Source: an uncultured Candidatus Saccharibacteria bacterium
GTDB taxonomy: Bacteria > Patescibacteriota > Saccharimonadia > Saccharimonadales > Saccharimonadaceae
Length of the DNA: 64,000 bases
Assembly: GCA_963548065.1 (NCBI GenBank)
Contig: CAUUSZ010000001.1
Coordinates: 22,594 to 86,593, forward strand
Direction: 5' to 3'
Position numbers and translations under genes: made by a program. Below, one piece after another: positions 8,793-48,345 of the stretch. The notes beneath the pieces were generated by a model that had not been told where the DNA came from, did not search any database, and saw only the letters and a program-made list of their open reading frames with translations. The first letter of the stretch is position 1, and the number at the start of each line of letters is the position of its first letter.

Positions 8793-9626
8793 ATGAAGCC
8801 AATTACCTCACCTGAGATCACTACACTAGAGATTATCATTATTATTATCGTGGCGATTGCACTGTATTGGGTGGGGCCACGCGTAGTGATGTGGCTGACA
8901 CGGCATGCCTTCGTTACCACATATCAGCGTACGCTGCCTAAGAAGGATCTCGAGAAGCGGCACAAGACGCTGGGCGGGCTCTTTGCTAATGTATGGCGCA
9001 TTATTGTCGTGGTGATTGCGGGCTATGCTATCTTTACTCATTTTTTCAATAGTGCAGCTCTTGCACCACTGTTTGCGAGCGCAGGGATTATTGGTGTTGC
9101 CTTCGGGTTTGGCGCGCAGTCGCTCGTTAAGGATTTTCTCTCAGGGGTATTTATTATTAGCGAAAACCAGTATCGGGTAGGAGATATTATCGAGATCGAT
9201 GGCTTTGGCGGGACGGTCGAGCGGATCGGCGTGCGCTCCACAGTGATCCGCGATGTCGAGGGCAATGTCCACTTCTTCCCTAATGGTGTGGTGCAGCATG
9301 TCATCAACAAGACGATGGGCTATAGCAAAGTATACTTCACCATTACCGTTGCACCTGACACCAACATTAGTACCGCCAGCGATATCATCAATCGGATTGG
9401 TGAGGAAATTTCTGGCGAGGAAAAATGGCAGCGCAAAGTGATCGAGCCACCACATTTCGACATTCTTGGCGACTTCAATGCGTCGTCGATTAGCCTCGTT
9501 GTCTCCGGCAAGACCCAGCCATCCGACCAGTGGGCCCTCACGGCCGAGATGCGGCGACGGATTCTGCGTGAGTTTGAAAAAGAGCACATCGAGCTCGGCG
9601 CAGCCTCGCCAGGCAAGCACAAATAA
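8793..9626 (+). CDS. Mechanosensitive ion channel (MscS family)
   Basis: TM helices are followed by LVKDFLSGVFIISENQYRVGDIIEIDGFGGTVERIGVRSTVIRDVEGNVHFFPNG, the MscS beta-domain signature. Confidence 0.85.
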   Translation: MKPITSPEITTLEIIIIIIVAIALYWVGPRVVMWLTRHAFVTTYQRTLPKKDLEKRHKTLGGLFANVWRIIVVVIAGYAIFTHFFNSAALAPLFASAGIIGVAFGFGAQSLVKDFLSGVFIISENQYRVGDIIEIDGFGGTVERIGVRSTVIRDVEGNVHFFPNGVVQHVINKTMGYSKVYFTITVAPDTNISTASDIINRIGEEISGEEKWQRKVIEPPHFDILGDFNASSISLVVSGKTQPSDQWALTAEMRRRILREFEKEHIELGAASPGKHK

Positions 9627-38045: not shown

Positions 38046-39056
38046 CTATTCATAGCCCAGCATATCATATGCCGTGGCCGCCATATAGGCCTGGAGCCGC
38101 CGCACTGCTTGAGCTGCCTCAGGAGCGGGCTGAGCGCTACACACGGCATAATACCCTACTAGGCCAGCAAGCAGCGGCCGGTTCAGCTCAGCCTGCCAGG
38201 CCTGCACATCATAACCGCGGCGCGCCATATCGAGCAAGAACTCGGTTGCACTCCACCGCCTTGGCACATAGGCTGCCCACTGCCAATCAATTAGCTTCAC
38301 GTTATCTTGAGCGGCATGGTAGGCAATTGTCTCGCTCCGCACATCACCGTGGCTCAAGCGGTCACACGGCTGGTTAGCCACCTGCTGAGCCAGCATGGCG
38401 AGATCAGCTAAGCGCTCGGTATTATCAAGCACGGCGCAAAACTGCTCGTAGCGCCGGCGAATCACTGGCTTGCTGGCTTGCTCAGCCCAGGAGCGGTACG
38501 TCTGCTGGAGCTCTTCACGCCGCGTCGCATCATCGCAAAGTAGCCGAAGCCCCTGACACTGCACGACTCGGTCAAACGCCGTGGCATGTAGCGTAAGCGT
38601 CTCAGCTGCCGCCGCAGGCAGCTTGGTCTGCTCAAGCTGGCCAATCGCCCGCAGCACCGCCGCTATATAGCGCTGACTAGCCAGCTTATTCGCCACATCA
38701 GGCGGCTGCCACTGCCAGCCATCCTTAGCAATATACGCCTGGCTCAGCATGATCACCCGCTCATCATCATACTGAACAAACTCCGTCACTAGAGGCGAAC
38801 CGGCCTGCTGCAGCGCCCGAATCACCGCATCATCTTTGCTCAGAGCCGCCGCTAATGCAGCGTGGTTCGAAGCTTCTGGATCGGCCTCCTTGACAAACAC
38901 CCACTGCGCTCCAGCCAGTGCAACAGCTCGCCGGCACCCGGTTGACGCGCCCTCAATTGGCACCACCCGCACCTGATCACGCGCCACTTTGCAGTGCTGC
39001 GCTACCATCGCAAGTGCCGATGGACTCAAAATCTGGGAAGACGACGGCTGACTCAT
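38046..39056 (-). CDS. Phosphotransferase (APH/choline-kinase-like kinase fold)
   Basis: LSHGDVRSETIAY is the HxD catalytic loop, and KLIDWQWA is the DxD/W motif. A TATACT lies 6 nt upstream of the ATG. Confidence 0.7.
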   Translation of the reverse strand: MSQPSSSQILSPSALAMVAQHCKVARDQVRVVPIEGASTGCRRAVALAGAQWVFVKEADPEASNHAALAAALSKDDAVIRALQQAGSPLVTEFVQYDDERVIMLSQAYIAKDGWQWQPPDVANKLASQRYIAAVLRAIGQLEQTKLPAAAAETLTLHATAFDRVVQCQGLRLLCDDATRREELQQTYRSWAEQASKPVIRRRYEQFCAVLDNTERLADLAMLAQQVANQPCDRLSHGDVRSETIAYHAAQDNVKLIDWQWAAYVPRRWSATEFLLDMARRGYDVQAWQAELNRPLLAGLVGYYAVCSAQPAPEAAQAVRRLQAYMAATAYDMLGYE

Positions 39057-42809: not shown

Positions 42810-43332
42810 TCGATACTCCTTACTATATTATTGTTATTGCCTGGTACTATGCTATACAAGGTATATTGAAATGTCAAGTAGTTTGAGAAATAAAGTACTA
42901 AATACTTAGCTCTTCTTCCACTCACTGCCTATATTGTCCAGCCGAGGAACGATTTATATTTCACTGTCACGCTTCGCAGCTTGCCGCACCACACTTACTG
43001 TGTACCCATGTAAAAGTATTATTTATAGTCAGATACTAAGGCACCAAGTATTTCACTGACTGGTAACTCTGTATTTTTCAGCGTTAGGTCTTACCCCTAT
43101 AGTATATTACTTAACATGAGTTCTCTTGTTTAGAGATATAAATAAACGAGCTCCTCGTCTATATTTCTTGGTGGTGTTCACGGTTGATTATTAAATATAA
43201 TACATTGAATGTCACCAACATTATTTGCGCCCAGCGCAAGCCATATCTCAGCTTTTGCCCTATACTTGTCTACGGAAGATATTACCTGCAATCTAGATAT
43301 AACATCATATGCACTGCTGCCAATAACATACG

Positions 43333-45216
43333 TTATACCCCCCAAGGTTTTTCGTTGTTTGTGATCTGAATTGAGAAGTCATGTAGCCTACCATCATCTT
43401 TATTAGTTTGAGTATTAACTTTCTTTATCTGCTTCATCAGAGCGTCTATAACATTGTGAGGTATCGTCATTAGAAAGAAAATAGCATCAGTTACCGAGGG
43501 ATTATTGATCTGCTTGATCATGTCGATAAGTTGTTTAAAATCTTTATTCTGCCAAGGATCAAGTAAGGCATCTTCCTTTTTAGGTTTTGGTGCACCCATT
43601 TTCCTATGATAGTAATCTGCATCAAGAGCCTGACTAAAAGACTGATCTAGCAGAAGCATGTCAGAATTTTTAGGCATAAATAGTCCATGTCGCAGATGAT
43701 ATGCGAGGTGAACAACCTCATTTGACGATACTATGTCTTTGTGGTTTTCAAGGCGCTGTTTAATGTAAAAAACAAACTCGTAGGGATCTTTGAAATACTC
43801 AGCCATCAAATCAAGGTCAAACAGGCTGAGTTGTATTGGCGGGAATTGGTTGACATCAGCCAAAAACACGCGTATTTGATCCATTGCCGCCGGGTATGGC
43901 TCGTTTGATACGCATAATATATACGCGTGCTTTATACTTTCCGGTGGTATAATTTGGTTGCCAGACTTATCAACTAATTTGTAGGGCTCATTACTCAGAA
44001 TTGTGTCGCGTGCTTTTATGCCTTGCTTGTAAGGGTCAATGACTGCCTTCTGAAAATCGGATTTAATCGCTTCAACATCACCATTGAGTGCAGAAGCCGT
44101 CATTTTTTTACTTTTGTTCTGGGCAATAATAGCTGTATTACCAACTATCCCCATAACATCAATATCGGTCAAGGTATTCTTTCCTTTAACTATCTTCGTA
44201 GCTTTATATGTATTCGTCTCGCCAAATATACTTTTGAAGTAGTCATATGTTATATCTTCGGCTACCTCACCAATATGTCTGTTAACAGTATTGACATATT
44301 GCTTATCTTGACGCATCCAATACAAAGGGCTTTTGTATATAGCTGAGGCTAACGTCATCATGTTCGGGAAGAAGTAGATGTCGTTTCCTAGGTTAATAAT
44401 AGGTTTGTAAGTGAATATACTCTCATTGCCAGGCTCATTGAATGTTTCTAGCTGATCACCAAACGAACAGTTAAACAAGTCAAGAAATACTTGAATGTCT
44501 TCTTTTGTAATTTTTTTGTCTGTGGCTTGTACAATTTTAACGATATAGTCGAGAGGAAATGCCATTTCGTCTATTGCACGTAAGGATTTTGCCTGCTCAT
44601 GGGTAGATATCGAGCGAGCAAGGTGTATACTATTAAACATATTCTTTAAGGCGAAAAAAATAGTCTTTGCCTTTGTGATGTTAAACTTCGTATTTGCTTC
44701 AATCCAATCTTTATCCTGTGCATATAGTCGTTGTGCTATCTCGAATGACTGTATATCATAAAACCCTGTATCACCATAAAAAGTAGTTTCTATAATCATC
44801 TCTTTACTACCAAAGATCTCTCGAAACTCTTTTTCTTTCTCTTCATCGCTCATAGCCTTGATCTGTTCTGATGAGTGTTTCATTATAGCTTCGTCAAAAT
44901 TATACATATAAGTACTATGAAGCTCATCGAGTAATAACCTGGTGTATTTGATTGCTTCATCGATTTGTTCCTTGTTAATCTCATTAAAACTGACTGCTTC
45001 ATTTTTAAGCATTAGACCCATAAGAAATGCTACCTCATTGCTATGCAATCTCGCACGCCAGTCAATATTAGCTACATTTTGTACATCTACAAAGAAATCT
45101 TTTGAAATAGCCTCTGCAAAGGCAAATATATAACCTTTTGTTGCTAAAAGTAGTTCTATATCAGATATAATATCCTCTCGCGAGCGTTTCTCTGCTATAC
45201 TCTCACTATCTCTCAT
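43333..45216 (-). CDS. Large hypothetical protein with central Mrr/NERD-like PD-(D/E)xK nuclease motif
   Basis: The 627 aa product runs from ATG 45216 (MRDSES), with a TATAAT (45229..45224) 7 nt upstream. The central segment is HIGEVAEDITYDYFKSIF...TLTDIDVMGIVGNTAIIAQNKSKK. It fits the E...D(I/G)D...(E/Q)xK pattern of Mrr_cat/NERD restriction-endonuclease-fold domains. Confidence 0.65.
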   Translation of the reverse strand: MRDSESIAEKRSREDIISDIELLLATKGYIFAFAEAISKDFFVDVQNVANIDWRARLHSNEVAFLMGLMLKNEAVSFNEINKEQIDEAIKYTRLLLDELHSTYMYNFDEAIMKHSSEQIKAMSDEEKEKEFREIFGSKEMIIETTFYGDTGFYDIQSFEIAQRLYAQDKDWIEANTKFNITKAKTIFFALKNMFNSIHLARSISTHEQAKSLRAIDEMAFPLDYIVKIVQATDKKITKEDIQVFLDLFNCSFGDQLETFNEPGNESIFTYKPIINLGNDIYFFPNMMTLASAIYKSPLYWMRQDKQYVNTVNRHIGEVAEDITYDYFKSIFGETNTYKATKIVKGKNTLTDIDVMGIVGNTAIIAQNKSKKMTASALNGDVEAIKSDFQKAVIDPYKQGIKARDTILSNEPYKLVDKSGNQIIPPESIKHAYILCVSNEPYPAAMDQIRVFLADVNQFPPIQLSLFDLDLMAEYFKDPYEFVFYIKQRLENHKDIVSSNEVVHLAYHLRHGLFMPKNSDMLLLDQSFSQALDADYYHRKMGAPKPKKEDALLDPWQNKDFKQLIDMIKQINNPSVTDAIFFLMTIPHNVIDALMKQIKKVNTQTNKDDGRLHDFSIQITNNEKPWGV

Positions 45217-45464
45217 GTATAACATTATACCGTTAGACTTATTTATTAGATTAATATAATATTTTCAACAACACCATAGCTATATCGCCTAGGCGAAATC
45301 TCAATACCTCTGCCACACCTACTAACAAACACACCGGAAAGAATCGCTCTATGACGGCATAACAAAAGATGACACCCACTTCTGTATCCAAATCAAAGAG
45401 GATAAGCACAGCGATCGCCAAGACTTCATGTCAATGTTTGAGCGTCGACCACGATAATTACTCT

Positions 45465-45543
45465 AAAATAAAAATCTCCCGCGGTGCAGCCTAGAAACTA
45501 CTTACCGGAGATTTTAAGCAACACAGCGATTAACTATGTCTAG
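45465..45543 (-). ncRNA. Candidate small RNA, unit 1
   Basis: This is the predicted transcript between the promoter at 45550..45577 and the hairpin plus T-run at 45465..45512. There is no SD or meaningful ORF. It is homologous to unit 2. Confidence 0.45.
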
Positions 45544-45549
45544 TTATAG

Positions 45550-45577
45550 ACTATATGCCTTTCGGCAGTCATGTCAA
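45550..45577 (-). promoter_or_regulatory. Sigma70-type promoter of unit 1
   Basis: The minus strand carries TTGACA (45577..45572), a 16 nt spacer, then TATAGT (45555..45550). Confidence 0.55.
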
Positions 45578-45611
45578 TGGCTATTTTCATAATTTTCATC
45601 AAAATACGCCA

Positions 45612-45686
45612 ACAAAAAATCTCCCGCTGTGTGACCTGAAAACCACCCGCCGGAGATTAGAGTGACACGGCGTTAGCCTGTATCTG
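45612..45686 (-). ncRNA. Candidate small RNA, unit 2
   Basis: This is the predicted transcript between the promoter at 45693..45720 and the hairpin (45619..45657) plus T6 run. It is homologous to unit 1. Confidence 0.45.
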
Positions 45687-45692
45687 CCTATA

Positions 45693-45720
45693 ATTATATG
45701 TCTTTTGATACCATTGTCAA
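45693..45720 (-). promoter_or_regulatory. Consensus sigma70-type promoter of unit 2
   Basis: The minus strand carries TTGACA (45720..45715), a 16 nt spacer, then TATAAT (45698..45693). Both hexamers match the consensus perfectly. Confidence 0.6.
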
Positions 45721-45799
45721 CAGCAACTCTGGAATTTACGTCCGACTTTACTTCGAAATTCTCTCAACATTTATCTTTTTTGTTTATCCTGCATATTTT

Positions 45800-46035
45800 C
45801 TACTACTTTTATCATGAAGATTAATAGACAGACAAAAACAATATTGAGAAGTTTGAAGGCGAAGATTTTATGTTCCAATTAACTGATGAGGAAATATCTG
45901 CACTTTCAAGGTCGCAAAATGTGACCTTGAACAAAGGAGCAGGGTATTTATATGCTTATGACTGTATTAAGGGGAGAACGTGCTATTAAGCAAAGGAGAG
46001 CCTTAATGAGAACATTTAAGCAGATGAAAAATGGA
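45800..46035 (+). pseudogene. Decayed, internally deleted fragment of an ORF6N-type gene (inverted relative to the intact copy)
   Basis: The plus strand reads ..GAAGATTTTATGTTCCAATTAACTGATGAGGAA..TCGCAAAATGTGACCTTGAACAAAGGAGCAGGGTATTTATATGCTTATGAC..TTTAAGCAGATGAAAAA. This matches the reverse complement of about 46855..47115 inside the intact gene, with a roughly 57 nt deletion and frame disruption. Confidence 0.6.
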
Positions 46036-46219
46036 CAATCTCACCTCATACGTAGTCTTTCTGATCTTCTTTGTCGTCTTTGTTACTATTGTTTGTTTAT
46101 TTTTATTTTCTCTTGCATATAGTTTTTCTTCTATTTGTTGCACATAAAAAGACGTTAGATTGTTACTTCTACCGCCCTACGTAAAGCTTATATAACTGCC
46201 TCATCTGTTATTGACATAG

Positions 46220-47233
46220 TTAAATTTTCAAATTCTTATTGTGTAGCATTCCACCAAACATCGTATGATACATGTCTTTTGATGATTCTTCTATCTTAGT
46301 AATACTTGATATTTTATTTCCGGCATCTTTTGATGATGCTCCACAAAGATAAAAGGCTTCATGTTCTGTCCCATAGTCTATCGCAATATACCGATCGTGA
46401 TACTTTTTACCTGCAATCTTCATTTTTACGTTGATGGTAGGGTAGTCTCTTATAAAATCATGGAGAATATTTCTTGTAAGCATATCTTTATGTCTTACAT
46501 TATCGCTAAATATAATGACTTCAACACTATCTTTTGCAGCTCTTAGCAGCTCTAATGTTTTTAAGCCTATATAGTTATCTATGACATAAATGCTTTTCTT
46601 GGCAGACTTATATAGCTTAGTATAGGCAACATCAGCTTCTATCTTATCTCCATTCATCAAGAGGAAGTGTTTATAGGTATCCGGATCTATAAAATTATCC
46701 ATCACTTTTTTCAAATCCTCTTTTGTTGCTAAGGTGCTTATTGTATCATTTATCTTTGCTATATCATGTGTGTTCTTATTAGTCTGTATAGCTATTTGGA
46801 CTAATTCTTTTGAGCCGATAAAATCTTGATTTTCAATCATAAAGTCTTTCATCTGCTTAAACAAGCGTATTAAGGCCTTGCTCTGTTTAACTGCCAGGTC
46901 TCCCCTCAATACGGTCATAAGCATATAAATACCCTGCTCCGTAAAGGCATAGGGATTGTACTTTATATTGCTTCCTCTGCCTGTTCCTTTGTTCAAGGTC
47001 ACATTTTGTGATCTTGAAAGTTCGTCCACTTCCTCATCAGTCAATTGGAACATAAAATCTTCATCAAATTTTTCATTATTTCTTTTTACCTGTTGATTAA
47101 ACGCTCTTGTTTCATACCCATAAATTTCAGCAAGTTCAAAATCAAGCATAACCTTTTGATTTCTTATATAGTGAATCTTGCTTTTAATTGTCGTTTCATC
47201 TATTACCACAATCTCTTTATTTTCTTCTGTCAT
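46220..47233 (-). CDS. ORF6N (KilA-N-like) domain protein with conserved C-terminal domain
   Basis: IRNQKVMLDFELAEIYGYETRAFNQQVKRNNEKFDEDFMFQLTDEEVDELSRSQNVT....YNPYAFTEQGIYMLMTVLRGDLAVKQSKALIRLFKQMK is the ORF6N signature. The C-terminal ...VIDNYIGLKTLELL...KKYHDRYIAIDY...YLCGASSKDAGNK is the domain commonly fused to it. The start is ATG 47233 after GGAGGTG. Confidence 0.8.
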   Translation of the reverse strand: MTEENKEIVVIDETTIKSKIHYIRNQKVMLDFELAEIYGYETRAFNQQVKRNNEKFDEDFMFQLTDEEVDELSRSQNVTLNKGTGRGSNIKYNPYAFTEQGIYMLMTVLRGDLAVKQSKALIRLFKQMKDFMIENQDFIGSKELVQIAIQTNKNTHDIAKINDTISTLATKEDLKKVMDNFIDPDTYKHFLLMNGDKIEADVAYTKLYKSAKKSIYVIDNYIGLKTLELLRAAKDSVEVIIFSDNVRHKDMLTRNILHDFIRDYPTINVKMKIAGKKYHDRYIAIDYGTEHEAFYLCGASSKDAGNKISSITKIEESSKDMYHTMFGGMLHNKNLKI

Positions 47234-47306
47234 GAAATGCACCTCCACAATTATCTCAATATCTTTTCCAATCTGATACGCACTACATAGCTTTTTGAAA
47301 TTAATA

Positions 47307-47630
47307 TCATGTCCTTTTGTATTTTTCTATTCCACCTTCAGCTTTTCCGATGTGTTCCACATTCTTTACAAGTCCATTATTTACATTTTCATAAAACCAT
47401 CTACCTATCAAAGCTGGCGGTGTTGCGATTAACTCTCTTAAAACAAACTCTTTCCCCTTCGGCAAGGAGCTTATTGTATTGAGTAAGGCAGTATACAGTG
47501 TGACATAGCTTGTATTTTCTTGTAGACTGCTGCACTTACAATATTCACTCACACTTGGGTAATTACCCTCTATTGCTTTTTTCATTAAAGTTTTCAGTTC
47601 TTCATCGGTTACGGTAAATTGAATTCGCAT
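47307..47630 (-). CDS. Hypothetical protein (possible RHH-like N-terminus)
   Basis: This 107 aa ORF is AT-rich and lies upstream of, and co-oriented with, the ORF6N gene. Confidence 0.5.
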   Translation of the reverse strand: MRIQFTVTDEELKTLMKKAIEGNYPSVSEYCKCSSLQENTSYVTLYTALLNTISSLPKGKEFVLRELIATPPALIGRWFYENVNNGLVKNVEHIGKAEGGIEKYKRT

Positions 47631-47931
47631 TTATATATTCTCTCTTTATAACTGAGATTATTACAATATCAATATCATTTTATCATACATACAATGATTT
47701 TTCTCATACTACAATTTTAATCCTTACATGATGTTTTTACGCTTCGCCATAATCTGACACCACGTTTCCCATTACTGCTCTAAAAACGCCTTTCACTTAC
47801 TTTTAGGATAGCTATACATGTTTTCCCTTATCATAATCTTCACGCGTTGGAATCTTGCCGGTCTTTTTCTGAGATAGCCTATCCTTATCTTGTTCATACC
47901 AGGTACAGATCGTTACATCCGTCGTCTCGAT

Positions 47932-48306
47932 ATGTCTTTTCAGACGACCCGACTAACGCAGCGCCGGATAGCCGAGCTGTTCGACGTCGATGTGCGCACC
48001 ATCAGCGAGCACCTCGGGAATGTCTTCTCTTCTGGTGAACTGGAGCGTGATTCAGTTATCCGGAAATTCCGGATAACTGCAAGTGACGGTAAGCGATACG
48101 CGGTTCAGCACTACAACCTCGACGCCATCATCTCGGTCGGTTACCGCGTCAACTCGGTGCGTGCTACCCAGTTCCGTCAGTGGGGTACGAGTGTGCTGCG
48201 CGACTTTGCTATTCGGGGCTATGTTATAGACCGCCAACGTTTAGAGCAGCCCTCTCAAGCCGCCTGGCACAAGCGCCGCGCACAAGTAAGTGAGTCAACG
48301 AAATGA
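47932..48306 (+). pseudogene. Truncated RhuM-family gene
   Basis: LTQRRIAELFDVDVRTISEHLGNVFSSGEL...RKFRITASDGKRYAVQHYNLDAIISVGYRVNSVRATQFRQWGTSVLRDFAIRGYVIDRQRLE matches the N-terminal third or so of RhuM-family proteins. It then ends, whereas full-length members as I recall them are roughly 300+ aa. Confidence 0.65.
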
Positions 48307-48345
48307 GACACTGGCTTCTCTATACCAGTGTCTCATTATCTTTTC
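48303..48345. terminator. Bidirectional terminator between the RhuM remnant and arcC
   Basis: A perfect 12 bp stem ATGAGACACTGG-cttctctata-CCAGTGTCTCAT is followed by TATCTTTT. Confidence 0.75.

Follow-up and report, generated by a model that had tools for sequence, protein, structure and literature searches.

Single-protein defence nucleases with a restriction-endonuclease fold are an already known kind of system. Both DNA and RNA are reported as substrates of Can2/Card1-type nuclease domains. The anticodon nucleases PrrC and RloC are ABC-ATPases, and a place within a type I restriction-modification (R-M) operon is a known position of R-M-linked back-up defence nucleases. The NERD domain and the Card1, Can2 and VC1899 nucleases (PF09002; 6wxw, 8q3z, 1xmx) have a common alpha-beta-beta-beta-alpha-beta fold, with E, D and (E/Q)xK placed on alpha1, beta2 and beta3. 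ZwsA is reported to be a NERD-domain stand-alone RNA endonuclease which acts against RNA phages (bioRxiv 10.64898/2026.04.06.716636). Upx is a single-protein PD-(D/E)xK anti-phage system whose trigger is a phage protein and whose activation is toxic; its 1272 amino acids (aa) are arranged as N-terminal, middle and C-terminal domains (NTD-MD-CTD), with the core at the extreme C-terminus, D1161/E1176/K1178 (PMC13099982, PMC13601566). The gene described here lies in a 64,000-nucleotide stretch of DNA from an uncultured Candidatus Saccharibacteria bacterium (GCA_963548065.1, contig CAUUSZ010000001.1, positions 22,594 to 86,593), called the window below. A preliminary description, made from the letters alone, had read it as an orphan 627-aa protein with an embedded nuclease core and a candidate defence factor. 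With moderate confidence, we read it as a frameshifted copy of a widespread stand-alone family of ~680-760 aa, whose members would provide single-protein nuclease defence against phage or invading DNA.

The gene is no orphan: the family is large, and the Prokaryotic Genome Annotation Pipeline (PGAP) already names relatives. A first homology search returned 64 of them. The full-length ones (679-763 aa) are all longer than the window open reading frame (ORF), and one, of 682 aa, is almost identical to the window product. Residue numbers marked P0002 are those of this 682-aa relative, in which E323, D356 and K371 correspond to E320, D353 and K368 of the window. An exhaustive HMMER search of 1.84 billion representatives of 50% identity clusters matched 1219 at E<=1e-3 and 384 at E<=1e-30, mostly 650-780 aa long and aligned end to end. 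Among genomes sampled at one per species, 42 loci were found, in Saccharibacteria, other Patescibacteria, Acidobacteriota, Actinomycetes, Clostridia, Dehalococcoidia, Bdellovibrionales, Bacteroidota, Elusimicrobia, Alpha-, Beta- and Gammaproteobacteria and Arcobacteraceae. A homologue was also found in 32 plasmid records, 22 of them predicted to be conjugative, where PGAP calls it 'SEC-C metal-binding domain-containing protein' or 'NERD domain-containing protein'; none was found in IMG/VR contigs, GenBank phage genomes or BFVD viral structures. The family is horizontally mobile, and it did not turn out to be a housekeeping family.

One copy was found on a Candidatus Altarchaeum contig (L043 8001-9776) from a metagenome-assembled genome (MAG). 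It is 32-40% identical, in two pieces of the same frame with residues 197-262 unmatched, and is probably interrupted. Its GC content is 0.29, lower than in the remainder of the contig (0.34), with transfer, mis-binning or decay as possible causes.

The Mrr/NERD-like core proposed in the preliminary description is supported as a restriction-endonuclease fold of the NERD/Card1-like type by a predicted model, by Foldseek, by the NERD matches of relatives and by conservation. The motif strings GEVAEDITYDYF, TDIDVMG and AQNKSKK are present as read, at residues 316-371 of the window protein rather than at 325-390. The catalytic residues E, D and QxK are near-invariant in the family: among 181 full-length members (P0002 numbering), D356 is kept in all 181, K371 in 180, Q369 in 179, D/E354 in 179, K373 in 177 and E323 in 172. 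The evidence for the fold was taken from relatives and from the model because the window protein itself reaches no library threshold; even at E<=1 it has no match to the NERD hidden Markov model. When 40 diverse members were compared with Pfam, 25 matched NERD (PF08378) at E<=0.01 and two matched Card1_endonuc. In the members whose coordinates were checked, the NERD matches fall in the segment equivalent to the window motif. The NERD gathering score of 22.1 bits is exceeded by P0083 (28.1) and P0075 (24.5), and P0133 and P0084 are just below it. The PADLOC models PD_DExK(1XMX), CARF_PDDEXK, Csx1 and NERD match the same segment, through their nuclease parts only. Neither Mrr_cat (PF04471) nor the DUF4263 or MspJI-like Pfam models matched the window protein or any of the 40 members. 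The NERD assignment of the window protein is thus made by homology transfer and predicted fold.

AlphaFold2 was used to predict the structure of the 682-aa relative with 20 homologues as input (pLDDT 86, pTM 0.86). The full-length model seems to be a soluble multi-domain protein. In its core, DSSP assigns a helix at 311-334, strands at 339-347, 350-361 and 364-371, a helix at 384-410 and a strand at 433-440. The motif residues sit where the fold requires them, with E323 on helix 311-334, D354 and D356 on strand 350-361, and Q369 and K371 on strand 364-371. A model of residues 255-480 alone has the same order of elements, with a core pLDDT of ~90 and a poorly predicted N-terminal lead-in. Foldseek with the full-length model placed Upx (9wuf) first, followed by Can2, VC1899 and Card1. 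With the domain-only model it returned SduA, R2 restriction-like endonucleases, VC1899, MspJI, Nt.BspD6I, Can2, Card1, McrC and cap-snatching endonucleases. The E-values of this second search are modest (1e-3 to 1e-1), and nearly all listed matches are nucleases with the fold or proteins containing one; for Can2 the Foldseek probability is 0.97-0.98, the query TM score (TMq) ~0.4 and the root-mean-square deviation (rmsd) ~5 A. The check by AlphaFold and Foldseek thus found the central segment to be a PD-(D/E)xK fold, and we infer that the family is a metal-dependent nuclease.

The preliminary description had recognised nothing in the regions on either side of the core. This stands in so far as no library describes the N- and C-terminal domains, but they hold invariant residues, and most relatives carry a SEC-C motif. 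The N-terminal region of ~250 aa is all-helical, has near-invariant residues within a motif of the form EPIFYxGxGAYDFQY, and has no Pfam or PDB sequence match. Residues 217-285 follow as helix, strand, two helices and strands, a predicted pattern compatible with a winged helix or DNA binder. The core is followed by helices that include the invariant Y487, R491 and E503, and the model has a C-terminal beta-beta-alpha-beta-beta domain at 615-679. A canonical SEC-C zinc knuckle, CxCGSGxKxKxC(C/H), stands at the C-terminal end in 23 of the 40 members. SEC-C (PF02810) is absent from the window protein, even when it is read through the frameshift described below to a tail ending FNNQP. The Saccharibacteria clade without the motif ends in ...FNNQP or in short tails, and other Patescibacteria have a Lys/Arg-rich tail. 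The Saccharibacteria clade has lost the motif, which would be ancestral in the family. When profiles of 20 and 40 homologues were compared with PDB sequences, only the SEC-C tail was matched. The PADLOC matches of members to 'E2', 'E1-E2' and 'PDC-S12' cover just the last 20-30 residues, because of the SEC-C motif.

The family resembles several described proteins in part. Among structures, Can2 is its best domain-level match, but unlike Card1 and Can2 the family has no CARF or cyclic-nucleotide sensor (no CARF Pfam match in the 40 members), and unlike NERD and Card1 it adds conserved N-terminal (~250-310 aa) and C-terminal (~200 aa) regions. Upx is the best match at full length (E 7e-5, prob 1.00, 608 columns). 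Like Upx, the family consists of large monomeric-type single-gene proteins with unannotated, mostly helical 'sensor' regions and one canonical PD-(D/E)xK core; unlike Upx, it is ~680 aa long and its core is central. Family profiles had no match to 9wuf, and there was no PADLOC match. Membership of Upx fails on sequence and on domain order, and the likeness is one of kind only. The nuclease domain of Shedu SduA (8ps5) has the same fold and is the top domain-level match by E-value (9.6e-4), and those of MspJI (4f0p), Nt.BspD6I and McrC share it too. All four are defence nucleases, as the family would be, without a cognate methylase in the same protein, but for SduA and the type IV/IIS nucleases the TM scores are low (0.25-0.29) and the flanking domains differ. 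The SEC-C motif also occurs in a validated single-gene lactococcal system (Rugutis, PMC11381338). With that and the other SEC-C defence proteins (PADLOC E2/E1-E2 and PDC-S12) the family has only the ~20-residue motif in common. The family, its N- and C-terminal domains and the combination of NERD with SEC-C are undescribed in Pfam, in PADLOC 2023 and in the literature searched, where no paper combined the two.

In other genomes the family looks like a defence or mobile-element gene that stands alone, as the preliminary description had suggested from its surroundings. All-against-all clustering of neighbouring ORFs in 54 loci found no partner gene conserved across taxa; the gene stands alone. 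The neighbourhoods below were read locus by locus. In an Arcobacteraceae MAG (L054 543-8591) the homologue X is embedded in a type I R-M operon as hsdM-hsdS-X-hsdR, in L027 the order is hsdM-BroN-X-hsdS-hsdR, and L029 and L041 are arranged similarly. In this position the homologues are like PrrC and RloC; unlike those, they have no NTPase domain, and there is no relation in sequence or fold. In one neighbourhood the homologue lies between an MmeI-type R-M gene and PIN_12 and Mrr_cat genes. Elsewhere it adjoins an OLD-ATPase/UvrD pair (Gabija-like), Hypoth_Ymh and a recombinase; patatin, an E2-E1-JAB protein and a SNF2/PLD helicase with an Eco57I-type methylase; or OLD-TOPRIM, SIR2_2 and DUF3800 proteins. 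It adjoins a KAP-type P-loop NTPase in one further locus, and PLD and AAA proteins in another. On an Azonexus hydrophilus plasmid (NZ_CP151407.1; L056 10500-14771) it stands between a tyrosine integrase gene on its upstream side and Avs2 immediately downstream. Large serine recombinases are near it in 8 loci. The family is associated with defence islands. The Azonexus gene was annotated as 'hypothetical protein' and is a full-length Avs2 (PADLOC 2412 bits); it was the only match in a PADLOC scan of ten unannotated neighbours.

The window copy is itself damaged. The open frame from 43333 to 45216 on the minus strand is as the preliminary description gave it, and its translation is 627 aa, but this is a frameshift truncation and not the full protein: intact relatives are longer, and the other frame can be read on for 52 further codons past the site, ending with TGA at 43180..43178. 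The window DNA there reads CCT TGG GGG GTA TAA and the protein ends ...KPWGV-stop, where the near-identical 682-aa relative has ...KPWGGITYVIGSS... In all 8 related loci fetched the DNA reads CCT TGG GGA GGT ATA ACG, all are in frame, and all read TGGGGAGGT. Compared with intact relatives, the aligned window lacks 1 nt. Contigs of the public runs X1 and X2 have one extra base at the G-run relative to the window, X2 as an uninterrupted G7. The contig of run X3 has G6, the same as the window; it may come from the window's own sample, and so is not independent. The G7 allele in run X2 makes slippage from G7 to G6 the likely origin of the frameshift, and GGGGAGG to GGGGGGG to GGGGGG would be the simplest history of the G6 allele. 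An assembly error at the homopolymer may also be the source of G6. The lost tail holds residues conserved among the 181 members (G630 in 170, K654 in 160 and W662 in 171), and because of this the window copy is probably inactive, a fresh pseudogene. Two other accounts were ruled out. An alternative genetic code would not explain the longer relatives, since the difference is a 1-nt indel and not a read-through stop; programmed frameshifting or phase variation as the normal state is contradicted by the 8 of 8 related loci that are in frame with an interrupted run, GGGGAGG.

In this genome the nuclease gene is a module of 2.5 kb that can be present or absent, set in an AT-rich island of 5.4 kb. 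The gene is AT-rich as described, with a GC content of 0.37, which is also that of the island, against 0.56 in both flanks. Its immediate neighbours are ORF6N/DUF4783 and DUF1413 genes upstream and a MacB/FtsX ABC operon downstream. The ORF6N gene and, beyond it, the arc operon are where the preliminary description had them, but no RhuM-type gene was seen next to the nuclease gene. To follow the slot in other strains, 79 metagenome loci were fetched via the adjacent MacB-type permease, and states were counted where MacB was >=92% identical. The slot is empty in 12 loci, where ~187 bp separate arcC from MacB (the junction joins window ~48294-48324 to 42899). Five loci have DUF1413 and ORF6N and no nuclease gene; in these, window 42901..~45416 is replaced by ~0.4-0.8 kb. 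The full arrangement is found in 3 metagenome loci, and also in the window and in L001-L003/L013, and a few further loci have only ORF6N remnants. That a tiny genome retains 1.9 kb for this gene had been thought notable; the gene's presence or absence among near-identical strains, and its frameshift here, contradict that.

From context and architecture, the family would use a single nuclease protein to defend against phages or other invading DNA. Its non-catalytic domains may hold the metal-dependent nuclease inactive, or may direct it. An infection cue would release the nuclease, which would then cut nucleic acid, as in sensor-plus-nuclease proteins such as Upx. In this genome, the gene would have arrived as the 2.5-kb module in the 5.4-kb foreign island, at a variable slot with arcC on one side and the MacB-type ABC operon on the other, and the loss of 1 nt (GGGGAGG/GGGGGGG to GGGGGG) removes the last 52 conserved residues. 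Whether the family is, more specifically, an uncatalogued single-gene anti-phage or anti-plasmid system, made of a new helical sensor domain, a NERD-like nuclease and an ancestral SEC-C motif and spread horizontally over >10 bacterial phyla including ultra-small Patescibacteria, and possibly archaea, is to us an even call.

Several observations weigh against a defence role. The window protein had no match over threshold in Pfam, NCBIfam, PADLOC or PDB sequences. In PADLOC-DB 2.0.0 (2023) it matches 0 system families, and members match generic nuclease or SEC-C segments only. The likeness to Upx is weak in its geometry (TMq 0.37, rmsd 10.7 A, with a different domain order). Some neighbourhoods of homologues are plain housekeeping, with serine hydroxymethyltransferase (SHMT), FGGY kinase and alpha-amylase genes. 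In the Saccharibacteria island, whose ORF6N and RhuM-type genes the preliminary description called typical of mobile or defence islands, no defence gene was recognised. With its copy truncated, the window may yield no product at all. The defence role of the family, the control of its nuclease and its substrate are all entirely inferred.

The strongest of the other explanations, though an unlikely one, is that the family is a type IV-like, modification-dependent or self-discriminating restriction endonuclease, which would be constitutive and recognise foreign DNA through its non-catalytic domains, with no infection trigger. The family is a single gene without a conserved methyltransferase partner, its D...QxK motif variant is a form known from Mrr-type enzymes, and MspJI and McrC are among its domain-level fold matches. 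It often lies within a type I R-M operon or next to one, which is also where mrr and mcrBC are found in E. coli, and the predicted 217-285 pattern would suit a winged-helix DNA binder. However, no member matches Mrr_cat or the modified-base readers SRA, YTH and EVE, the best fold matches are of the Can2/Card1/VC1899 type and not Mrr, and DNA binding lacks any direct sign. Rather less probable is a nuclease for the maintenance or DNA processing of mobile elements, serving addiction, competitor exclusion or recombination intermediates and not host phage defence. The large serine recombinases adjacent in 8 loci, the tyrosine integrase in one, the 32 plasmid records, mostly conjugative, and the absence from the phage collections searched would all fit such a role. 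Yet the recombinases lie at distances of 1 to 6 kb in varying orientations and are missing from most loci, the Saccharibacteria island is free of recombinase genes, and a place within type I R-M operons or next to Avs2 or Gabija-like genes is a classic defence-cargo signature. An RNA-targeting NERD nuclease like the stand-alone ZwsA, cleaving phage or host RNA and not DNA, has that NERD-domain precedent and the reported ability of Can2/Card1-type domains, the best fold matches, to cut both nucleic acids in its favour, but it seems very improbable, as the 40 members have no S4, VHS, DUF647 or other RNA-binding domain, there is no sequence relation to the other domains of ZwsA, and the contexts are mostly those of DNA-targeting systems.

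The coordinates of the gene, its domains and the island are collected in Table 1. The TATAAT hexamer noted in the preliminary description is present exactly where it was placed. No Shine-Dalgarno-like purine run was seen before ATG 45216 and a promoter scan found no good -35 upstream of the hexamer, and a leaderless start of the nuclease gene is plausible from these features. The contigs of a putative RNA run are sparse, and none crosses 44880-45255. One contig of that run, X1, with adapter attached, ends at 43158 inside the terminator-like hairpin. This single contig end would fit a transcript whose 3' end lies past the extended 679-aa frame.

Table 1. Features of the nuclease gene and its island in the window.
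Feature	Position	Strand	Basis
Full gene as in intact relatives	43178..45216	-	679 aa from ATG 45216; relatives of 679-682 aa collinear to the end
Truncated ORF, 627 aa	43333..45216	-	full gene cut short by a 1-nt deletion
Frameshift site, G6 run	43338..43343	-	intact relatives GGGGAGG, GGGGGGG in one run
Out-of-frame C-terminal 52 codons (ITYVIGSSAYDV...FNNQP)	43181..43336	-	family-conserved K654, W662 (P0002 numbering)
N-terminal all-helical domain, proposed sensor/regulatory	44467..45180	-	invariant E64, E146, Y150, Y168, D171, W174 (P0002)
PD-(D/E)xK (NERD/Card1-like) nuclease domain, window residues ~308-474	43795..44295	-	H-E-E-E-H-E topology, Foldseek, NERD matches of relatives
E320 codon (E323 in P0002), acidic residue of helix alpha1	44257..44259	-	E in 172/181
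D353 codon (D356 in P0002), catalytic aspartate of beta2	44158..44160	-	D in 181/181
Q366-N-K368 codons (Q369-x-K371 in P0002), (E/Q)xK of beta3	44113..44121	-	Q in 179/181, K in 180/181
TATAAT -10-like hexamer, candidate leaderless start	45224..45229	-	sequence read; 7 nt before ATG
Terminator-like hairpin and T-run	43142..43162	-	16 nt past the extended stop codon
Insertion/deletion module of the nuclease gene	42901..45416	.	blastn junctions in L061, L062, L074; ORF6N-bearing sisters without the module
Whole AT-rich island, arcC to MacB-type ABC operon	42900..48294	.	12 near-identical loci with an empty site

Other features were seen in and around the island. In three of the five loci where other DNA replaces the nuclease module, that DNA encodes a hydrophobic ORF of 68-78 aa (MEETMSKKKACTLTLALGIPYFF...): at L070 9404-9610, at L072 9374-9610 and, in the ORF6N-remnant locus L065, at 1544-1750. 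It has no match in the window, and none was seen in L061. Tandem small-RNA-like cassettes lie upstream of the nuclease gene at window 45416-45744 and persist in nuclease-less strains, which places them on the ORF6N side of the island and not in the nuclease module. L061 has further diverged copies of the cassette at 8843-9513 (75-77% identity). In relatives, a gene of the Replic_Relax (replication-relaxation) family (L001 16111-16959) lies ~6 kb beyond the MacB operon and may be what is left of a mobile element in the surrounding region. Farther off in the window, at 38046-39056, a 336-aa ORF downstream of a PspC-domain gene has a choline/ethanolamine-kinase-like match that scores 20 bits where the cutoff is 29; the version in the relative L002 is broken into ORFs of 94 and 234 aa.

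The annotation of a 627-aa protein should be corrected to a 679-aa gene with a frameshift. Should the family turn out to be defensive, it would be a large addition to the one-gene nuclease immune systems, with 1219 clusters and with members on conjugative plasmids, in R-M operons and in Patescibacteria. Its strongly conserved sensor-like domain would be a new target, whose trigger could be found by standard phage-gene toxicity screens. The Saccharibacteria, host-dependent and with genomes of ~1 Mb, still have a variable hotspot between arcC and MacB, at which near-identical strains differ by the gain, loss and inactivation of foreign cargo.

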